Below, piece by piece: positions 7,220 to 47,345 of a stretch of DNA of 64,000 nucleotides. The stretch lies in the NCBI RefSeq assembly GCF_003018255.1, contig NZ_CP027440.1, one strand, 5' to 3'. Under the pieces are notes generated by a model. That model saw only the letters and a program-made list of their open reading frames with translations. It was not told where the DNA came from and did not search any database. The number at the start of each line of letters is the position of its first letter. Position 1 is the stretch's first letter. The position numbers were made by a program, and so were the translations under genes. The stretch comes from Escherichia coli (lineage in GTDB: Bacteria; Pseudomonadota; Gammaproteobacteria; Enterobacterales; Enterobacteriaceae).

Positions 7220-8920
7220 ATGCATCCCACAGGCCCGCATCTCGGGCCTGATGTTCTGTTTCGAGAGTCCAAAATGAAAGTGACATTAACGTTCAACGAA
7301 CAACGTCGTGCGGCGTATCGTCAGCAAGGGTTATGGGGCGATGCTTCACTGGCCGATTACTGGCAGCAGACCGCTCGTGCGATGCCAGACAAAATTGCCG
7401 TGGTCGACAATCATGGTGCAACGTACACTTATAGCGCGCTCGATCACGCCGCGAGCTGTCTGGCAAACTGGATGTTAGCGAAGGGTATTGAATCAGGCGA
7501 TCGCATCGCATTTCAACTGCCAGGCTGGTGTGAATTTACCGTTATCTATCTTGCCTGCCTGAAAACCGGTGCGGTTTCCGTGCCGCTGTTGCCTTCCTGG
7601 CGAGAAGCAGAACTGGTGTGGGTGCTCAATAAGTGTCAGGCAAAAATGTTCTTTGCACCGACGTTGTTTAAACAAACGCGTCCGGTAGATTTAATCCTGC
7701 CGCTGCAAAATCAGCTTCCACAACTACAACAAATTGTCGGCGTGGACAAACTGGCTCCCGCCACCTCTGCTCTCTCATTAAGTCAGATTATCGCCGACAA
7801 TACTCCTCTGACCACGGCGATAACGGTCCACGGCGATGAATTAGCCGCGGTGCTGTTTACCTCCGGAACCGAGGGTCTGCCAAAGGGCGTGATGCTAACG
7901 CATAACAATATTCTCGCCAGTGAGCGGGCTTATTGCGCGCGGCTAAATCTGACCTGGCAGGATGTCTTTATGATGCCTGCGCCACTTGGTCACGCAACGG
8001 GCTTTCTGCATGGCGTAACAGCACCTTTTTTGATTGGTGCTCGCAGCGTGTTGTTAGATATTTTCACTCCTGCTGCGTGTCTCGCGCTGCTTGAGCAGCA
8101 GCGTTGCACCTGTATGCTCGGCGCAACGCCGTTTGTCTATGATCTTTTGAATTTACTGGAGAAACAGCCCGCAGACCTTTCAGCGCTGCGTTTCTTTCTT
8201 TGCGGCGGTACCACAATCCCCAAAAAAGTGGCGCGTGAATGCCAGCAGCGCGGCATTAAATTATTAAGTGTTTATGGTTCCACAGAAAGTTCGCCGCATG
8301 CGGTGGTGAATCTCGATGATCCTTTGTCGCGCTTTATACACACCGATGGTTACGCTGCCGCAGGTGTAGAGATTAAAGTGGTCGATGACGCACGCAAGAC
8401 TTTACCGCCAGGTTGCGAAGGTGAAGAAGCCTCGCGTGGCCCCAATGTGTTTATGGGGTATTTTGATGAACCTGAATTAACCGCCCGTGCGCTGGATGAA
8501 GAAGGCTGGTATTACAGCGGCGATCTCTGCCGCATGGATGAGGCTGGCTATATAAAAATAACCGGGCGCAAGAAAGATATTATTGTCCGCGGCGGCGAAA
8601 ATATTAGCAGCCGTGAAGTAGAAGATATTTTATTGCAGCATCCTAAAATTCACGATGCTTGTGTGGTTGCAATGCCCGATGAACGCTTAGGTGAACGTTC
8701 ATGCGCTTATGTCGTGCTGAAAGCACCGCATCATTCATTATCGCTGGAAGATGTAGTGGCATTTTTTAGCCGTAAACGGGTCGCGAAATATAAATATCCT
8801 GAACATATCGTGGTAATCGAAAAACTACCGCGCACAGCCTCAGGTAAAATACAAAAGTTTTTGTTAAGGAAAGATATTATGCGGCGATTAACTCAGGATG
8901 TCTGTGAAGAGATTGAATAA
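7220..8920 (+). CDS. fadK: Short/medium-chain acyl-CoA synthetase (AMP-forming)
   Basis: 566-aa ORF starting 2 nt after the ydiT stop; AMP-binding signature FTSGTEGLPKGV; an internal ATG at 7274 (MKVTLTF...) is an alternative start. Confidence 0.85.
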   Translation: MHPTGPHLGPDVLFRESKMKVTLTFNEQRRAAYRQQGLWGDASLADYWQQTARAMPDKIAVVDNHGATYTYSALDHAASCLANWMLAKGIESGDRIAFQLPGWCEFTVIYLACLKTGAVSVPLLPSWREAELVWVLNKCQAKMFFAPTLFKQTRPVDLILPLQNQLPQLQQIVGVDKLAPATSALSLSQIIADNTPLTTAITVHGDELAAVLFTSGTEGLPKGVMLTHNNILASERAYCARLNLTWQDVFMMPAPLGHATGFLHGVTAPFLIGARSVLLDIFTPAACLALLEQQRCTCMLGATPFVYDLLNLLEKQPADLSALRFFLCGGTTIPKKVARECQQRGIKLLSVYGSTESSPHAVVNLDDPLSRFIHTDGYAAAGVEIKVVDDARKTLPPGCEGEEASRGPNVFMGYFDEPELTARALDEEGWYYSGDLCRMDEAGYIKITGRKKDIIVRGGENISSREVEDILLQHPKIHDACVVAMPDERLGERSCAYVVLKAPHHSLSLEDVVAFFSRKRVAKYKYPEHIVVIEKLPRTASGKIQKFLLRKDIMRRLTQDVCEEIE

Positions 8921-36188: not shown

Positions 36189-38450
36189 ATGTCGCAACAT
36201 AACGAAAAGAACCCACATCAGCACCAGTCACCACTACACGATTCCAGCGAAGCGAAACCGGGGATGGACTCACTGGCACCTGAAGACGGATCTCATCGTC
36301 CAGCGGCTGAACCAACACCGCCTGGTGCACAACCTACCGCCCCAGGGAGCCTGAAAGCCCCTGATACGCGTAACGAAAAACTTAATTCTCTGGAAGACGT
36401 ACGCAAAGGCAGTGAAAATTATGCGCTGACCACTAACCAGGGCGTGCGCATCGCCGATGATCAAAACTCACTGCGTGCCGGTAGCCGTGGTCCAACGCTG
36501 CTGGAAGATTTTATTCTGCGCGAGAAAATCACTCACTTTGACCATGAGCGCATCCCGGAACGTATTGTTCATGCACGCGGATCAGCCGCTCACGGTTATT
36601 TCCAGCCATATAAAAGCTTAAGCGATATCACCAAAGCGGATTTCCTCTCAGATCCGAACAAAATCACCCCAGTATTTGTACGTTTCTCTACCGTTCAGGG
36701 TGGTGCTGGCTCTGCCGATACCGTGCGTGATATCCGTGGCTTTGCCACCAAGTTCTATACTGAAGAGGGTATTTTTGACCTCGTTGGCAATAACACGCCA
36801 ATCTTCTTTATCCAGGATGCGCATAAATTCCCCGATTTTGTTCATGCGGTAAAACCAGAACCGCACTGGGCAATTCCACAAGGGCAAAGCGCCCACGATA
36901 CTTTCTGGGATTATGTTTCTCTGCAACCTGAAACTCTGCACAACGTGATGTGGGCGATGTCGGATCGCGGGATCCCGCGCAGTTACCGCACCATGGAAGG
37001 CTTCGGTATTCACACCTTCCGCCTGATTAATGCCGAAGGGAAGGCAACGTTCGTACGTTTCCACTGGAAACCACTGGCAGGTAAAGCCTCACTCGTTTGG
37101 GATGAAGCACAAAAACTAACCGGACGTGACCCGGACTTCCACCGCCGCGAGTTGTGGGAAGCCATCGAAGCAGGCGATTTTCCGGAATACGAACTGGGCT
37201 TCCAGTTGATTCCTGAGGAAGATGAATTTAAGTTCGACTTCGACCTTCTTGATCCAACTAAACTTATCCCGGAAGAACTGGTGCCCGTTCAGCGTGTCGG
37301 CAAAATGGTGCTCAATCGCAATCCGGATAACTTTTTTGCCGAAAACGAACAAGCAGCATTCCATCCAGGTCATATTGTTCCTGGTCTGGACTTCACCAAT
37401 GATCCCCTGTTGCAGGGACGTTTGTTCTCTTATACCGATACACAAATCAGTCGTCTTGGTGGGCCGAATTTCCATGAGATTCCGATTAACCGTCCGACCT
37501 GCCCTTACCATAATTTCCAGCGTGATGGCATGCATCGTATGGGGATCGACACTAACCCGGCGAATTACGAACCGAACTCGATCAACGATAACTGGCCGCG
37601 CGAAACACCGCCGGGGCCGAAACGCGGCGGTTTTGAATCATACCAGGAACGCGTGGAAGGCAATAAAGTTCGCGAGCGCAGCCCATCATTTGGCGAATAT
37701 TATTCTCATCCGCGCCTGTTCTGGTTAAGTCAGACGCCGTTCGAGCAGCGCCATATTGTTGATGGTTTTAGTTTTGAGTTAAGCAAAGTAGTACGCCCGT
37801 ATATTCGTGAGCGCGTTGTTGACCAGTTGGCGCATATCGATCTTAACCTTGCGCAGGCGGTAGCAAAAAATCTCGGTATTGAGCTGACTGACGATCAACT
37901 GAATATTACGCCGCCACCGGACGTCAACGGGCTGAAAAAAGATCCTGCGTTAAGTCTGTACGCCATTCCTGACGGTGATGTGAAAGGTCGCGTGGTAGCG
38001 ATTTTGCTTAATGATGAAGTGAGATCGGCAGACCTTCTGGCCATTCTCAAGGCGCTGAAGGCCAAAGGCGTTCATGCCAAACTGCTCTATTCCCGAATGG
38101 GTGAAGTGACTGCGGATGACGGTACGGTGTTGCCTATAGCCGCTACCTTTGCCGGTGCGCCTTCGCTGACGGTCGATGCGGTCATTGTCCCTTGCGGCAA
38201 TATCGCGGATATCGCTGACAACGGCGATGCCAACTACTATCTGATGGAAGCCTACAAACACCTTAAACCGATTGCGCTGGCAGGAGACGCGCGCAAGTTT
38301 AAAGCAACAATCAAGGTCGCTGACCAGGGTGAAGAAGGGATTGTGGAAGCTGACAGCGCCGACGGTAGTTTTATGGATGAACTGTTAACGCTGATGGCAG
38401 CACACCGCGTGTGGTCACGTATTCCTAAGATTGACAAAATTCCTGCCTGA
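36189..38450 (+). CDS. katE: Catalase HPII
   Basis: 753-aa ORF recognised as large-subunit monofunctional catalase. Confidence 0.97.
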
Positions 38451-38455
38451 TGGGA

Positions 38456-38475
38456 GGCGGCGCAGTTGCGCCGCC
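38456..38475 (+). terminator. Perfect hairpin immediately after the katE stop
   Basis: ggcggcgc-agtt-gcgccgcc, 8-bp GC stem; no strong U-run, so it may be a REP-like palindrome rather than a classic terminator. Confidence 0.4.
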
Positions 38476-38499
38476 TCAAATGATTTACATAGTGCGCTT

Positions 38500-38700
38500 T
38501 GTTTATGTCGGATGCGGCGTGAACGCCTTATCCGGCCTACAAAACTGTGCAAATTCAATATATTGCAGGAAAAACGTAGGCCTGATAAGCGAAGCGCATC
38601 AGGCAGTTTTGCGTTTGTCAGCAGTCTCAAGCGGCGCAGTTACGCCGCCTTTGTAGGAATTAATCGCCGGATGCAAGGTTCACGCCGCATCTGGCAAACA
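38500..38700. repeat. BIME / RIP element (REP - IHF-site - inverted REP, plus an additional REP-like palindrome)
   Basis: gtcggatgcggcgtgaacgccttatccggcctac (REP), then aaaactgtgcaaattcaatatattgcagg (IHF-site-like core), then gtaggcctgataagcgaagcgcatcaggc (inverted REP), plus cgccggatgcaaggttcacgccgcatctggc further on. Confidence 0.7.
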
Positions 38701-38707
38701 TCCTCAC

Positions 38708-39478
<771 letters not shown>

Positions 39479-40831
39479 TTAATGTGCTTTTTTAAGCTCT
39501 GCGATGCAGTCGGCAAAATTTGGCAACCATTTCTCGTGCGCCAGAATCATCTCGCGTGCCAGCAGCTCAGCATCGCGATCGGAATGCACCAACGGACTAA
39601 GGTTTAGGGCCAGTAACACATCGTTAAACTCTCCGCTAAGTGCGGCGTTGCTGGCAGCAATCTCGAAGCCTTTAATGGTGTGAATCAGCCCCATCACTTT
39701 ATCATCGAAATGCGTAATGCGCGGATGTGGCGTCGCGCCATCGCGCCCCAGCGTACAGGTCATTTCTACCGCCCAGTCTGCCGGAATATTATCAATATGC
39801 CCATGATGCGGGATATTAACGTAATGTTCAGCTTGCTTGTCGTTGTAGATAGCGTTGATCACTTCGCACGCTGCATCAGAGTAATAAGCCCCACCGCGCT
39901 GTTCCAGTTCTTTCGGCTTAACTTTCAACTCCGGGTTTTTATATAGCTCAAAAAGTTGTTTCTCGACTTTCTGTACTACCTGCGCTCGTGCGCCGCCTTT
40001 GTAGTATTCGCCCATTTCAATAGCCAGCATCTCTTTTTGCTTGAAGTAATAAAGCAAATAAGAACACGGCAACAGATTCATAGAACGAATTAAGCCTTCG
40101 CTAAATGGCAGATCGAAAATATTTTTAACGCCAGATGCTTTTAACTGCCCGGATGCCACACCATCAAGCAATTCGGCAAAGCGTGATTTGCCATTTACCA
40201 GCACATCCTTAATGAACACCATATGGTTGAGGCCGAACAGATCGATAGATAAATCATCGCTGTCTTTCAGCATCAGAACATCGCGAATAAACATCTTCAT
40301 GCCGATCGGAATATTACACACGCCGATAAAGCGTTTAAATCCGGTATGACGATAAACGGCTTCAGTGACCATTCCCGCCGGGTTAGTGAAGTTAATCACC
40401 CATGCATTCGGACATAGTTCTTCGACATCTTTTACGATGTCAAAAATCACCGGAATGGTACGCAGACCTTTAAACAGACCGCCCGCACCGTTAGTTTCCT
40501 GACCAAGATAACCATGACTTAATGGAATACGTTCATCCAGTTCGCGCGCCGGTAATTGGCCAACGCGCAGTTGGGTAGTAACGAAATCAGCATCTTTCAA
40601 TGCTTCGCGGCGATCCAGCGTTTTATAAAGCTTCATCGGGACGCCAGCGTTATCAATCATCCGTTGGCAGAGATCAAAAATAATATCCAGTTTCGCTTTA
40701 CCACCTTCGACATCCACCAGCCATAATTCGCTGACCGGCAATTCGTGATAACGCTTAATAAATCCTTCCAGTAACTCCGGGGTATAGCTGCTCCCGCCAC
40801 CAATAGTGACGACTTTTAATTTCTGGCTCAT
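39479..40831 (-). CDS. chbF: 6-phospho-beta-glucosidase (GH4, NAD/Mn-dependent)
   Basis: ORF-track frame trimmed to ATG at 40831 (MSQKLKVVTIGGGSSYTPEL...) preceded by GGGAGA; 450 aa. Confidence 0.93.
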   Translation of the reverse strand: MSQKLKVVTIGGGSSYTPELLEGFIKRYHELPVSELWLVDVEGGKAKLDIIFDLCQRMIDNAGVPMKLYKTLDRREALKDADFVTTQLRVGQLPARELDERIPLSHGYLGQETNGAGGLFKGLRTIPVIFDIVKDVEELCPNAWVINFTNPAGMVTEAVYRHTGFKRFIGVCNIPIGMKMFIRDVLMLKDSDDLSIDLFGLNHMVFIKDVLVNGKSRFAELLDGVASGQLKASGVKNIFDLPFSEGLIRSMNLLPCSYLLYYFKQKEMLAIEMGEYYKGGARAQVVQKVEKQLFELYKNPELKVKPKELEQRGGAYYSDAACEVINAIYNDKQAEHYVNIPHHGHIDNIPADWAVEMTCTLGRDGATPHPRITHFDDKVMGLIHTIKGFEIAASNAALSGEFNDVLLALNLSPLVHSDRDAELLAREMILAHEKWLPNFADCIAELKKAH

Positions 40832-40934
40832 AATTTCTCCCTTCAGTACAGAATTCTGATATCTGGCATATCTGCCCCCCGGACATAAATAATCCAGCAA
40901 CAGGACAGATATGTGAATTGTCAGGTATAACGAC

Positions 40935-41777
40935 TTACTGATTAAATTCAGTCAATTTCTTACGATAGCTCTTAGGCGTAAAGGATGTTAATTTCTTAAA
41001 CGTTTTAATAAACAAGCTCGGGCTACTATAACCGGCCTCAAACGCAATATCCGTCACTGAATAGTTGGTCATTTCCAGTTGTTTTTTGGCAAAATTAATA
41101 CGGATTTCATTAATAATCTGCATTGGCGTTTTACCATAGTATCGTTGAGTCGCTCGCGTCAAATATTCCTGTGATTTGGCTGACAACGTCACCATATTCT
41201 CCAGCGCCGATTCACTAAACTGCTCTTTATCATGCATCTTTTCTACCGTACTTTTCAGCCACTGCGGTATATCATCAATCACCTGTTCTTCGCGGTAATG
41301 ACGTAAACGGTTAATGACATAAAAAGTAACCATCTCAACAAACTCTTCCAGCCCTGTTTCGCGGAAATTCAATGAAGAAATCACTGTTTCCACATAGGTG
41401 AGAAAAGCGTTATTGGTCCGGTATACCTGCGAAGCGACAAAGCAATAAGGCAACAACGGCAGGTAATGCTGCTCAAAAAAGCGTTTACTGATCCCAACGT
41501 TCAATATACGCGTGGCACCAAATTCATAAAAACTTTGATGGTGCGAACCTAACGGAATAAAAACAAAATCGCCCCGTTCCAGTAACACGCGCTTACCGTT
41601 AATCTCCTGGAAATAACGCCCGGTTAATACCAGAGTAAATTCATAATAGTCGTGCTGATGCAGTCCGCTGATACTCTCAGTTTTATTGTAGATAAACACA
41701 TGGAAATTTTTGCCATTAAACAACTGCTGTTCTCGGGCAGTGGCAATTTCCAGCGCGTTAATCACTGGCTGCATCAT
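40935..41777 (-). CDS. chbR: AraC-family dual regulator of the chb operon
   Basis: 280-aa ORF recognised as ChbR. Confidence 0.9.
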
Positions 41778-41784
41778 CGACTCC

Positions 41785-42135
41785 TTATGCCTTCAGTTTT
41801 TCATGAAGCTCAATTAATTCAGTAATCAGTTCACGCGCAAGCATGGACGTCATTAAATGATCCTGAGCGTGGACCAGCACCAGACTCACTTTCATCTTAC
41901 CTTCGCCCGCATCGCCTTCAATCAGTTTCGTCTGTACCAGATGCGCTTCATTCAATGCCATCCGTGACTGATCCATCATGGTTTTTGCTGCGGCAAAATC
42001 GCCCTGCTTCGCCTGTTTCAGTGCCGCATACGCCAGGCTGCGCGCTTGTCCGGAGTTGATGATAAGCCCCATCACCACTTCTTCCAGCTCTTCAACTTCC
42101 GTTTGCGTATCGGGAATATTATCGAGATCCATCAT
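41785..42135 (-). CDS. chbA: PTS chitobiose-specific EIIA component
   Basis: 116-aa ORF recognised as lactose/cellobiose-family EIIA. Confidence 0.93.
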
Positions 42136-42185
42136 ACATCGTTCCTCTCTATTCTTACCGGCACGATTACCCGTACCGGCATCGA

Positions 42186-43544
42186 TTAAAATTTCAGGGC
42201 GTTAGCGATATCTTCTTCGCTCTCTTCTTTATCAATCGCGTTTTGTGCTTTGTTAGCCACCACAACAAAGGGCAGATAAATTAACGTTGCGATACCAAGG
42301 TTGAAGAGTGCGACCAGCAATGCGGCGACGCTACCGTTGGTGTTAAAGAAGGCTCCCAGACCGGTTGGCATGGTCCACGGTGCAATATTGGTCACCGGAG
42401 GAATAATGCCCATGTAGTAAGCTGCGAGGGTGATTGCCGCCAGAATCGGTTGTACCAGTACAAACGGAATAAACATCACCGGGTTCATGATAATTGGCAG
42501 ACCAAACAGAATCGGTTCGTTAATCTGGAAGATGCCGGACGGCAGCGCCAGTTTTGCCACCTGACGATAATCAGCACGGCGAGAGGCGATAAAGATAGCC
42601 AGGATCAGACCTAAAGTCGCACCACTGCCCCCAAGGAAAATAAAGGAGTCCAGCATCGGCTTGGCCCAGATATGGAAGGTCTTACCGGCTGCCAGCGCCG
42701 CTTCGACGGAACCATATTGCTGATAGGTCGCGATATTTTCCAGCGCCCACGGCGTCATAATGCCGTTGTCCAGTGCGGTCAGCGCCAGCGCACCATGAAT
42801 ACCGAAGAACCAGAGCAGTGGAACAAAGATCACATAGGCCCAGCCCACCACGCTACCCAACGATGCCAGTGGGGTTGAGATGGTATCCATAATGATCTGA
42901 TGGAAGTTGGTGCCCCAGGTATTCAACGCCCAGGCAATAATCCCCATCACGGAAAGAATAATAAAGCCGGGAATTAAAGCCGAGAAGGAACGCGATACTG
43001 AAGCAGGTACGCTATCGGGCAATTTAATGACCCAATTGCGGTGGACAATAAAGGTAAACATTTCTGCCACCGCCAGGCCAATAATAATCCCGGAGATGAT
43101 ATTCGCCCCACCTAACCAGTTTGCGCCAACCGCATAGGCCTCACCGACACTATATGGGGTGACGGTCATAAATGCTGCAACAGATAACAACCCAGCCGCC
43201 AGCGCATCGACTTTACGCTCTTCTGCCAGCGCCATGCCAATAAAGAACGGTGCCATTAAAGACATTATCCCTAATGTTCCGTTATATACGTTGCCGCCAA
43301 TACCTTTCAGACCATTAAGTGTTTCAATGGTTGAGGCATCCAGGCGAATACCTAAGGAATAAAAAAACGACCCCTCCCCAAAGCTTAGAAAAACGTTGTT
43401 AATTAATACAAACATGGCCCCCGCAAGGGTTAACGGCATTAAGCGAATAAAGCCATTTTTGATTGCATTAACGTGTGGCTGCTTTCCTATTTTAACTGCA
43501 AAAGGGAGGAGTACCTTTTCAAGCGATGCAATAACATTACTCAT
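42186..43544 (-). CDS. chbC: PTS chitobiose-specific EIIC permease
   Basis: 452-aa polytopic ORF recognised as ChbC. Confidence 0.95.
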
Positions 43545-43628
43545 AGAAAAATACCCTTTAAAACCGCAATTTAAATATTGCGGTATTGATTTATGAAATA
43601 ACTCTTTGACGGGAAAATTTAAAATAAA

Positions 43629-43949
43629 TTAATTTGCTGCGGCTTTTTTAATCGCTGCAACCGCAGCCTTAAGCACGCCTAAACCATCGACTTTGCCATA
43701 AAGCAGCGAGTCAATTACTTCAACCGGTTTGTTGGGTAACAAACGCTGGATTTCGGGCAACATATAAGCAATCTGCGGCCCTAATAACACGACATCGGCA
43801 TTCTGACCTTTTTCACCAGCCAGTGTTTCCGGAAATGCTTCAATAATGACCGGAACTTCATATTTTTCTGCCTGTGCGCGCATTTTTGATACCAGTAAAG
43901 AGGTAGACATGCCCGCAGAACAAAACAGATAAATGTGTTTCTTTTCCAT
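43629..43949 (-). CDS. chbB: PTS chitobiose-specific EIIB component
   Basis: 106-aa [23 protein letters not shown]... with the phosphorylatable Cys in FCSAGMSTS. Confidence 0.95.
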
Positions 43950-44190
43950 AAAACTGCCCTCATCGACGATTATCTGTCAGCCAGACACTCCGCAAGCCTT
44001 AACCTGCTTCCATGCTCTGGGTAACTTGCGAAACCAACATGACTTTTTTTGTGGCTGAAAGGAGTATACGGTATAGGCCTGAGCAATAGTATTTCTTTGA
44101 CCTTATAAATTGTCTCTCCTTGACCTGTGGTTATGACCCTCTTCACATTTCGGGCAAATAATTCGCGAAGATAATTAAGAACACAGGCCA
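43950..44190 (-). promoter_or_regulatory. chbB upstream control region (operon promoter; NagC/ChbR/CRP sites expected)
   Basis: Assigned from operon architecture and established knowledge; individual sites not mapped here. Confidence 0.3.
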
Positions 44191-44215
44191 AAAAAAACCG
44201 GCGCAATGGCCGGTT
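44189..44215 (-). terminator. osmE terminator
   Basis: ccggc-gcaatg-gccgg hairpin; on the minus strand it is followed by a U-run (plus-strand aaaaaaa at 44191-44197). Confidence 0.55.
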
Positions 44216-44247
44216 TCCGTTGTTACTCAAGCTTTCAGGCGAAGTGA

Positions 44248-44586
44248 TTACTTCGTAGCCTGTGGATCAGTGTCGTATTCAGCACAGGTCTGATAACCGG
44301 AGTTGATGACATGTCCGGTATCATCTAACGCGACAAAGTAGGTTTCTGCTTTACCATCACGTTGACCCAGGATGTAGGTCTGGCAAGTACCACGAGCATG
44401 GATCATGCTCACTTCAGACGAAGGTTTACCCGCAATTTGTGCAACCTGCGCCCGGCTCATGCCTTTTTTGACGTCTTTCACCACAGGCTGTACAAACTGG
44501 TCTTTGGTACGATCATAAGCCGTACAACCCGCCAGCATGGTTAATACCGCCGCTGCACTCAGAATTCCTGCCATATTCTTGTTCAT
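44248..44586 (-). CDS. osmE: Osmotically inducible lipoprotein E
   Basis: 112-aa ORF with lipobox (LAGC) after a signal peptide; recognised as OsmE. Confidence 0.9.
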
Positions 44587-44787
44587 ATTCCGTCCTCTTG
44601 TTTATCAGCGTGTTAGATAAGCCTGGAATACATTGGGCGCTTTTTCAAGCCCGTGAACGAAACGGCTCCGCTTTCAGAGGATTCCTGTATGACGTTTTAA
44701 CCACCATTCAGCCCGCTGTCGCTTGTCGTTTCAGTAGCAACGGGTTAGCTTTAAGGAAGTTTTGTCTTTTCTGTCTGGAGGGGTTCA

Positions 44788-45615
44788 ATGACATTGCAAC
44801 AACAAATAATAAAGGCGCTGGGCGCAAAACCGCAGATTAATGCTGAAGAGGAAATTCGTCGTAGTATCGATTTTCTGAAAAGCTACCTGCAAACTTATCC
44901 GTTCATTAAATCACTGGTGCTCGGGATCAGCGGCGGTCAGGACTCCACACTTGCCGGTAAGCTGTGCCAGATGGCGATTAATGAGCTGCGCCAGGAGACC
45001 GGCAACGAATCACTGCAATTTATTGCCGTACGCCTGCCCTATGGTGTTCAGGCCGACGAACAAGATTGCCAGGATGCCATTGCCTTTATTCAACCGGATC
45101 GCGTATTAACCGTTAATATCAAGGGCGCGGTATTGGCCAGCGAACAGGCGCTGCGCGAAGCGGGTATTGAATTAAGTGATTTTGTCCGTGGCAATGAAAA
45201 AGCGCGTGAGCGGATGAAAGCACAATATAGCATTGCGGGTATGACCAGCGGTGTCGTGGTGGGCACCGATCATGCTGCAGAAGCCATTACCGGATTCTTC
45301 ACTAAATATGGTGACGGCGGTACGGATATTAATCCGCTGTATCGTCTCAACAAACGCCAGGGTAAACAGTTACTGGCGGCATTAGGTTGCCCGGAACACC
45401 TTTATAAGAAAGCCCCAACGGCCGATCTGGAAGATGATCGCCCTTCTCTGCCAGATGAAGTGGCACTCGGCGTGACCTATGACAATATCGACGACTATCT
45501 GGAAGGGAAAAACCTACCTGAACAGGTCGCCAGAACAATAGAGAACTGGTATCTGAAAACCGAACATAAACGCCGTCCGCCAATTACCGTTTTCGATGAT
45601 TTCTGGAAAAAGTAA
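44788..45615 (+). CDS. nadE: NH3-dependent NAD+ synthetase
   Basis: 275-aa ORF with PP-loop SGGQDS; recognised as NadE. Confidence 0.97.
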
Positions 45616-45654
45616 TAATTTGCACATATTGGTTTGTGCGAAAAAGAGTACTTT

Positions 45655-45760
45655 GTTCACGCCGGATGCGGCGTGAACGCCTTACTCGACCTACAAAACT
45701 ATGCAAATTCAATACATTGCAGGAGTCGAATAGGCCTGACAGGCGTAGCACGTCAGACGG
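45655..45760. repeat. RIP / BIME element (second copy in the window)
   Basis: gccggatgcggcgtgaacgccttactcgacctac + aaaactatgcaaattcaatacattgcagg + aataggcctgacaggcgtagcacgtcagacgg; near-identical in its core to the element at about 38508-38612. Confidence 0.7.
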
Positions 45761-45844
45761 TGTAACCTTTGTCATCGACCCGCCTCTTTTTTAATCGCTC
45801 TCCGCCTGTTACACTGGATAGATAACCAGCATTCGGAGTCAACA

Positions 45845-47345
<1,501 letters not shown>

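Follow-up and report, generated by a model that had tools for sequence, protein, structure and literature searches.

The two repeats found downstream of katE and nadE in a stretch of Escherichia coli chromosome are independent members of one dispersed family, BIME-1, also called RIP or RIB, and the "extended core" that they have in common is the family-wide L linker, with no sign of special kinship between the two copies. We consider this account highly probable when taken whole, with its mechanism, the origin of the elements and the pair being of no practical use for recombination. The RIP after nadE is an element of an already known type, described since 1991–1993. As summarized in PMC3333891 and PMC2817692, the family goes back to Gilson 1991 and was named RIB and RIP by Boccard & Prentki 1993 and Oppenheim 1993, RIP denoting a repetitive IHF-binding palindrome and RIB a reiterative IHF BIME. 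A BIME-1 consists of y, L and z1, is present as a single copy, and has a well conserved L, often with an IHF site (PMC3333891; PMC2817692), and papers cited by PMC3333891 demonstrated that IHF binds family elements in vitro and in vivo.

The window, by which we mean the whole stretch of 64,000 nt analyzed, is best matched by strain ChlosBP-23-1 (99.8%), and K-12-type strains match it at approximately 97.4%. The genes of relevance are arranged in the order katE (+), chbGFRACB (-), osmE (-), nadE (+), cho (+), and ves (-), with katE ending at 38450 and nadE at 45615. Within nadE/cho, patches of 88–92% identity to K-12 (45101–45200, 45995–46094, and 46395–46494) stand in a background of 97–100%, which suggests a mosaic recombination history of the source strain.

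The repeat pair is a direct repeat of 124 nt (38497–38620 versus 45651–45774), with 99/124 positions identical (80%), and the pairwise repeat search of the window puts its copies 7,154 nt apart, in agreement with the distance of about 7 kb given in the preliminary description, which also correctly placed both copies 3' of plus-strand genes, downstream of the katE and nadE stop codons. Segment by segment, the katE-chbG and nadE-cho copies are identical at 29/33 positions in the Y REP, 28/35 in the L linker, and 22/30 in the Z REP, and at 16/31 and 13/25 in the left and right flanks, respectively. The statement that a second RIP/BIME copy follows nadE and shares more than the generic REPs with the katE-chbG element is borne out by the L linker, and the alignment of 38500–38620 with 45655–45760, which had been proposed as a check, likewise shows similarity extending beyond the REP units. 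The core itself had been said to match at all but three positions; the 30-mers in question (38540–38569 and 45694–45723, both on the + strand, with 0 matches in 100 window shuffles) are identical at 28/30, differing at two positions, 8 (G/A) and 22 (T/C). Shuffled windows also gave no match to the Y consensus. The L core is present in the 64-kb window in two copies only, with genes in between, and the arrangement is, as had been noted, not CRISPR-like. The box originally drawn at 45655–45760 comprises Y-L-Z, while the family-level unit spans about 45631–45784.

The element after nadE, with its immediate surroundings, is made up of the following parts:

45631..45661, + strand: left flank of the RIP unit, diverged from the family left end (consensus TCAGATTGTTGACAAAGTGCGCTTTGTTCATG), 16/31 identical to other copies
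45662..45694, + strand: Y-type REP with a CTAC head, 3 mismatches to the Y consensus, 29–30/33 identical to other copies
45695..45729, + strand: L linker, with a small TGCAA...TTGCA hairpin and the IHF consensus, overlapping the Rfam ES036 match at 45695–45737
45707..45719, + strand: IHF core consensus match ATTCAATACATTG, 12/13 to WATCAANNNNTTR, in the same register as 38553–38565
45730..45759, + strand: degenerate Z1-type REP, 22–23/30 identical to other copies (29–30/30 among themselves)
45760..45784, + strand: right flank of the RIP unit, diverged, its 3' end CCCGCC adjoining the conserved T-run
45785..45792, + strand: T-run TCTTTTTT, inside a CGCCTCTTTTTTAAyC block conserved across Enterobacteriaceae genera in the cross-genus alignment
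45814..45829, + strand: CTG-N10-CAG LexA-box-like motif CTGGATAGATAACCAG in the cho promoter region, present in all genera aligned

The element after katE has an additional layer, a locus-specific hairpin on either side:

38456..38475, + strand: hairpin H1 (GGCGGCGCAGTTGCGCCGCC), just 3' of the katE stop codon, left copy of the hairpin that brackets the RIP
38477..38630, + strand: RIP unit, delimited by family alignments and by Y and IHF consensus matches
38477..38507, + strand: left flank of the unit, by family alignment
38508..38540, + strand: Y REP, by family alignment
38541..38575, + strand: L linker, by family alignment
38553..38565, + strand: IHF core within L, 12/13 to the IHF consensus
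38576..38605, + strand: Z1 REP, by family alignment
38606..38630, + strand: right flank of the unit, by family alignment
38631..38649, + strand: hairpin H2 (GCGGCGCAGTTACGCCGCC), a direct repeat of H1, then TTTG
38666..38696, - strand: lone Y-type REP, inverted, between H2 and the chbG stop codon, found by an inverted-repeat search

As to the family identity, the parts of both copies agree with BIME-1 in REP arrangement, linker, IHF consensus, number of units, and location. Two REPs of opposite orientation are present, a Y REP that matches the consensus with 1 and 3 mismatches and an inverted second REP of 30 nt, whose tentative assignment to Z1 rather than Z2 is based on this length and on a consensus (one metagenome locus, with a longer, Z2-like REP, provides a contrast case). 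Their heads are CTAC and GTAG in the katE-chbG copy and CTAC and ATAG in the nadE-cho copy, which thus has the GTAG/CTAC tetranucleotide of RAYT-substrate REPs on one side only. Between the REPs lies a linker of approximately 35 nt, whose core is nearly invariant over 23 loci, and inside it the IHF consensus WATCAANNNNTTR is matched at 12/13 positions in both copies, against a background of 0.18 such sites per 160 nt. Each window locus has a single unit and no tandem array, the katE-chbG locus having the lone REP in addition, and both units are extragenic, at the 3' end of a transcription unit. The family alignment comprised the two window copies and the copies at tkt, sbp-pfkA, and fepA-entD; a separate consensus was built over the 23 loci. 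In the latter, conservation extends beyond the Y REP by approximately 31 nt on the left and beyond the Z REP by approximately 25 nt on the right, and the consensus unit reads TCAGATTGTTGACAAAGTGCGCTTTGTTCATG, Y, L, Z1, then ATTTTGCGTTTGTCATCAGTCTCAA. The ends of the unit are imperfect inverted repeats of each other, making the whole unit of approximately 155 nt one long imperfect palindrome. We take its flanks to be, probably, the external "A" and "B" motifs of Gilson et al. (1991). The L core being common to all 23 loci compared, and Y-L-Z1 to both window copies, their placement in the same dispersed RIP/BIME family holds. Rfam RF02751 independently recognizes the L linker of both, and their RNAs are predicted to fold far more stably than shuffled sequence (values below). 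A 52-nt L-linker query finds a median of at least 28 places per E. coli genome, and at least 23 distinct RIP loci are represented in the metagenome sample; for a family with this median of L-bearing sites, two copies in 64 kb are to be expected. In the RefSeq annotations of K-12 and of the best-matching strain, neither site bears a repeat feature. That such repeats break short-read assemblies is illustrated by a draft E. coli contig whose end falls within the nadE-cho RIP (contig positions 8874–8942).

The copy after nadE departs from the family in several of its parts. Its Y REP has a weakened outer stem, ACTCGACC where the consensus has ATCCGGCC, and in the RNA fold GTTCACGCCG of the left flank can pair with CGGCGTGAAC in the 5' half of the Y REP, giving a perfect alternative hairpin of 10 bp (window 45655–45679) in competition with the canonical, weakened Y stem. 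Its Z REP has the head ATAG, not GTAG, and carries 7–8 substitutions, and, as read from the sequence of the stem, one change is compensated (GAT..ATC to GAC..GTC) and one is disruptive (GGC to GAC). The best-kept part of this decayed copy is the L core, whose conservation would be consistent with constraint on the IHF site or on the small TGCAA/TTGCA hairpin. Of 5,426 complete E. coli genomes, all but one (5,425) carry this copy, nearly all of them at 95–100% identity. Judged from these comparisons, it is an old copy, fixed in E. coli and partly decayed, with one GTAG head lost and the stems weakened, and it is probably no longer mobile.

The katE-chbG site, on the contrary, is polymorphic. 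A 257-nt intergenic allele (window 38451–38707), that of the window and of K-12, comprising hairpin, RIP, hairpin, and lone REP, is found in 1,930 genomes, and a 46-nt allele, with no RIP, one unrelated hairpin, and different final katE codons, in 3,249 genomes, the remaining genomes showing other variants, including an IS621 insertion. We considered the 46-nt, O157-type allele as a clean empty site and rejected it, due to the unrelated hairpin and the altered final katE codons, and it is thus uninformative on the mechanism of insertion. IS621 (IS110 family) is located between GTAG and GCCTGAT of the katE-chbG Z1 REP (approximately 38576–38580) in some strains, including GPEC1201. This is a known REP-targeting insertion sequence (PMC1525189), and the insertion point matches its known REP target.

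What may such elements do at these positions? Extrapolating from the family literature, IHF would bind and bend the L linker at the 3' end of the transcription unit, with ATTCAATAYATTG as the candidate IHF-site sequence in the units 38477–38630 and 45631–45784. The element would be transcribed as part of the nadE or katE 3' UTR, and the REP hairpins would then form stable stem-loops that slow 3'-to-5' decay, stabilize the upstream mRNA, and attenuate read-through. At nadE-cho, such attenuation would limit transcription entering the LexA-controlled cho promoter, the LexA-box-like motif lying only approximately 30 nt past the RIP unit, as part of the context and outside the repeat. The gene cho is under SOS control. 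In terms of origin, the element would be a palindromic MITE-like unit of approximately 155 nt with inverted-repeat-like ends that entered the DNA downstream of the nadE stop codon and ahead of the T-run of the ancestral nadE terminator, a scenario that the comparisons below show in part.

The order osmE-nadE-cho-ves is ancestral across the Enterobacteriaceae, and all genera aligned possess the CGCCTCTTTTTTAAyC block, with the CTG-N10-CAG LexA-box-like motif and then the start of cho behind it. Other genera have a nadE-cho intergenic region of less than the 229 nt of E. coli (window 45616–45844), and the stretch from the nadE stop codon to the T-run is genus-specific, the hairpin or REP in it differing by genus. 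In the cross-genus alignment, nadE is followed by a plain terminator hairpin in Pseudescherichia and by another hairpin in Citrobacter. A GTAG-type REP of their own abuts the T-run in Enterobacter and Lelliottia, two REPs are present in Kosakonia, and the RIP is found in E. coli. As this genus-specific content precedes a shared T-run, the RIP of E. coli stands in the place of the terminator stem, and the T-run at 45785–45792 most probably represents the tail of the intrinsic terminator that nadE had ancestrally, which the RIP now keeps apart from any canonical stem. The nadE terminator site thus seems to have been colonized independently and repeatedly by genus-specific REPs; neither the E. 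coli-type L core nor the E. coli-type Y/Z REP was found within 8 kb of nadE in the non-Escherichia loci examined. Escherichia albertii lacks the RIP after nadE and has a plain hairpin terminator there; it was rejected as an empty site, since cho itself is missing. Upstream of chbG, E. albertii possesses a RIP truncated at its 5' end; a GCAA microhomology marks the point where half of the left hairpin joins the L core.

This position also feeds the alternative that we regard as a real possibility, even if we lean away from it, namely that the element is primarily a terminator or attenuator and an mRNA stabilizer of nadE and katE, the binding of IHF being incidental. The element sits where other genera have the nadE terminator stem, just 5' of the conserved T-run, the RNA folds of the two elements are far more stable than those of shuffles (z = -4.4 and -7.5), and REPs have been reported as mRNA stabilizers and as aids to Rho-dependent termination (PMC2817692; PMC3333891). 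However, the E. coli T-run has no hairpin immediately adjoining it, and it would be left unexplained why the AT-rich L core is the best-kept part of a decaying copy. A scan for canonical intrinsic terminators (a G+C-rich stem directly followed by a T-run) found 0 at both intergenic regions, and a promoter scan called nothing at either locus; with no canonical terminator called, the way nadE transcription ends in E. coli is inferred.

Another alternative, which we find decidedly improbable, is that the core acts mainly as RNA, i.e., as the ES036/CssrF sRNA or as a processed 3'-UTR fragment between the REP hairpins, and not as an IHF site in DNA. The Rfam model RF02751 (ES036, CssrF sRNA) matches both L cores at 55.4 and 42.9 bits, versus a gathering threshold of 37.6, on the strand of the upstream genes, spanning the L linker and the GTAGGCCT head, and the small TGCAA/TTGCA hairpin is part of the predicted folds. 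These matches allow that the L core may have a role at the RNA level, instead of or besides IHF binding. On the other hand, the model is 43 nt long with only 8 pairs, of which 1–2 are non-canonical in the window copies, the invariant stretch coincides with the IHF consensus, and dozens of near-identical copies per genome make a specific trans target unlikely. A literature search on ES036 or CssrF gave only unrelated papers.

As to the relationship between the two copies, the katE-chbG unit shares 84–88% identity with the tkt, sbp-pfkA, and fepA-entD copies and only 70% with that at nadE-cho, the nadE-cho unit is 69–71% identical to every other copy compared, and identities among the copies other than nadE-cho are 82–90%. 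By these identities, the two window copies have no special relationship and are not each other's closest relatives. Local copying or gene conversion, by which one element would have been derived from the other as its neighbor, is scarcely credible, in spite of the 7-kb proximity and the same orientation, given these identities, a nadE-cho copy that is fixed versus a katE-chbG copy that is polymorphic, and an L-core identity that is family-wide.

Exchange between the two copies, deleting, duplicating, or inverting the chb-osmE-nadE segment in some strains, had been raised as a potential of the pair, and we find it extremely unlikely. It would start from 80% similarity over 124 nt at a distance of 7 kb, and REP-REP recombination has precedents: Shyamala 1990, as cited in PMC7661048, and the F'128 amplification and lambda bio junctions, as cited in PMC1525189. 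The two copies are direct repeats, though, between which a simple exchange would delete the intervening segment or duplicate it in tandem; it would not invert it. The longest exact run common to both is 22 nt. The minimal efficient segment for the RecBCD pathway is approximately 23–27 bp. A deletion would also take out nadE, which is essential, and in the 3,249 genomes with the short katE-chbG allele the partner is missing altogether. Chimeric queries were composed for a deletion (katE flank, hybrid RIP, cho flank), for a duplication (nadE flank, hybrid RIP, chbG flank), and for a hypothetical inversion, the latter query being one that would also catch an exchange with the lone inverted REP at 38666–38696, and a junction was called when one place covered at least 80% of the query. 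Each of the three gave 0 hits among the 5,426 complete E. coli genomes, colinearity over 38000–46500 holds for 5,386 genomes, and the rearrangements of chb-osmE-nadE that the preliminary description suggested looking for in other strains did not turn up. For fixed rearrangements, recombination between the copies is largely refuted; transient duplications in cultures may occur, by analogy with the general precedent of REP-mediated duplication. The pair is not a practical recombination substrate and need not be flagged as a rearrangement hotspot, in which sense the negative result is useful.

One observation does show recombination at such a unit. In 9 genomes (CP52E and LHM10-1, for example), the nadE-cho allele has only approximately 95 nt, beginning at the nadE stop codon and ending with the Y REP (window 45601–45694), swapped for the left half of a RIP of 60% identity, with a canonical Y stem, flanks 97–100% identical, and the right breakpoint at the Y/L boundary. 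This patch replacement could be counted in favor of recombination partners, and it indicates that RIPs can host recombination breakpoints, but it is not an exchange between the window copies. Elsewhere in E. coli, no locus exceeds 90% identity to the CP52E-type left half, and ectopic conversion from within E. coli is therefore unproven for this patch.

The hairpins bracketing the katE-chbG RIP have counterparts at other loci. Of the 23 RIP loci, 8 have a full-length unit flanked on both sides by direct copies of one G+C-rich hairpin, H, specific to the locus, and in these 8 the right-hand copy of H is followed by a T-run. For five of the eight, katE-chbG among them, the flank-versus-flank score exceeds those of all 506 mismatched-locus controls (the score of the H1/H2 pair is 30). 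Three alleles occur among E. coli genomes at a tkt locus, whose empty allele has H followed by TTTTTTT, a canonical intrinsic terminator, while the one-copy allele reads H-RIP-H-TTTTTTT and the two-copy allele H-RIP-H-RIP-H-TTTTTTT, the duplicated segment being 22 nt, AAGGGCCGCGAAAGCGGCCCTT. These three alleles suggest that the RIP entered a terminator between its stem and its tail and that the whole hairpin was duplicated. The layout at katE-chbG is H-RIP-H, whereas the nadE-cho copy retains the T-run only. As a generalization, which we offer tentatively and think rather unlikely to hold, a full-length RIP (approximately 152 nt, with the ends TCAGATTGTTGACAAA...TTTGTCATCAGTCTCA) would insert between terminator stem and T-run, duplicating the hairpin (approximately 19–35 nt), and the H copies would then permit precise loss or tandem gain by exchange. 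If true, a duplication of palindrome length would suggest that an extruded hairpin or cruciform is cut at both of its feet, and this would be a concrete clue to the mechanism by which REPINs/BIMEs spread. We found no mention of hairpin duplication in the later REP/REPIN literature searched, and novelty is not claimed.

Overall, the finding of two family members near each other matters little in itself. Two by-products may be of interest to the REP/REPIN field, the hairpin duplication alleles and the genus-specific REPs at the nadE terminator, as both bear on where and how REP elements insert and on how clean loss occurs.

Of the known systems to which these elements can be compared, Rfam RF02751 (ES036, CssrF) has a 43-nt model that aligns end to end with the L linker and the GTAGGCCT head, above the gathering threshold, but its entry describes an sRNA gene, whereas here we deal with one segment of a multi-copy DNA repeat. 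The BIME-2 elements (Y-S-Z2 tandem arrays with gyrase sites; PMC6379681) are likewise intergenic and possess the Y REP and a related Z REP; they differ in having a short S linker that lacks an IHF site, a Z2 REP, iteration in tandem, and strong cleavage by gyrase, and none of these features is seen at the window loci. The REPINs, doublets mobilized by RAYT/TnpA-REP (PMC3337134; PMC2817692), also combine two inverted REPs and a spacer into one long imperfect palindrome and show presence/absence polymorphism between strains, seen here at katE-chbG and tkt; the known RAYT locus lies outside the window. Unlike these, the E. coli BIME-1 has a conserved IHF-binding spacer specific to it, and the duplication of flanking terminator hairpins is not mentioned in the REPIN literature searched (PMC3337134; PMC2817692). 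With BIME-1/RIP/RIB, finally, the window elements share the Y REP, the conserved L linker with the IHF consensus, the Z1 REP, and the presence of dozens of copies per genome, and they differ from it in nothing essential, the nadE-cho element being a decayed copy with an ATAG head on its Z REP, a weak Y stem, and diverged flanks.
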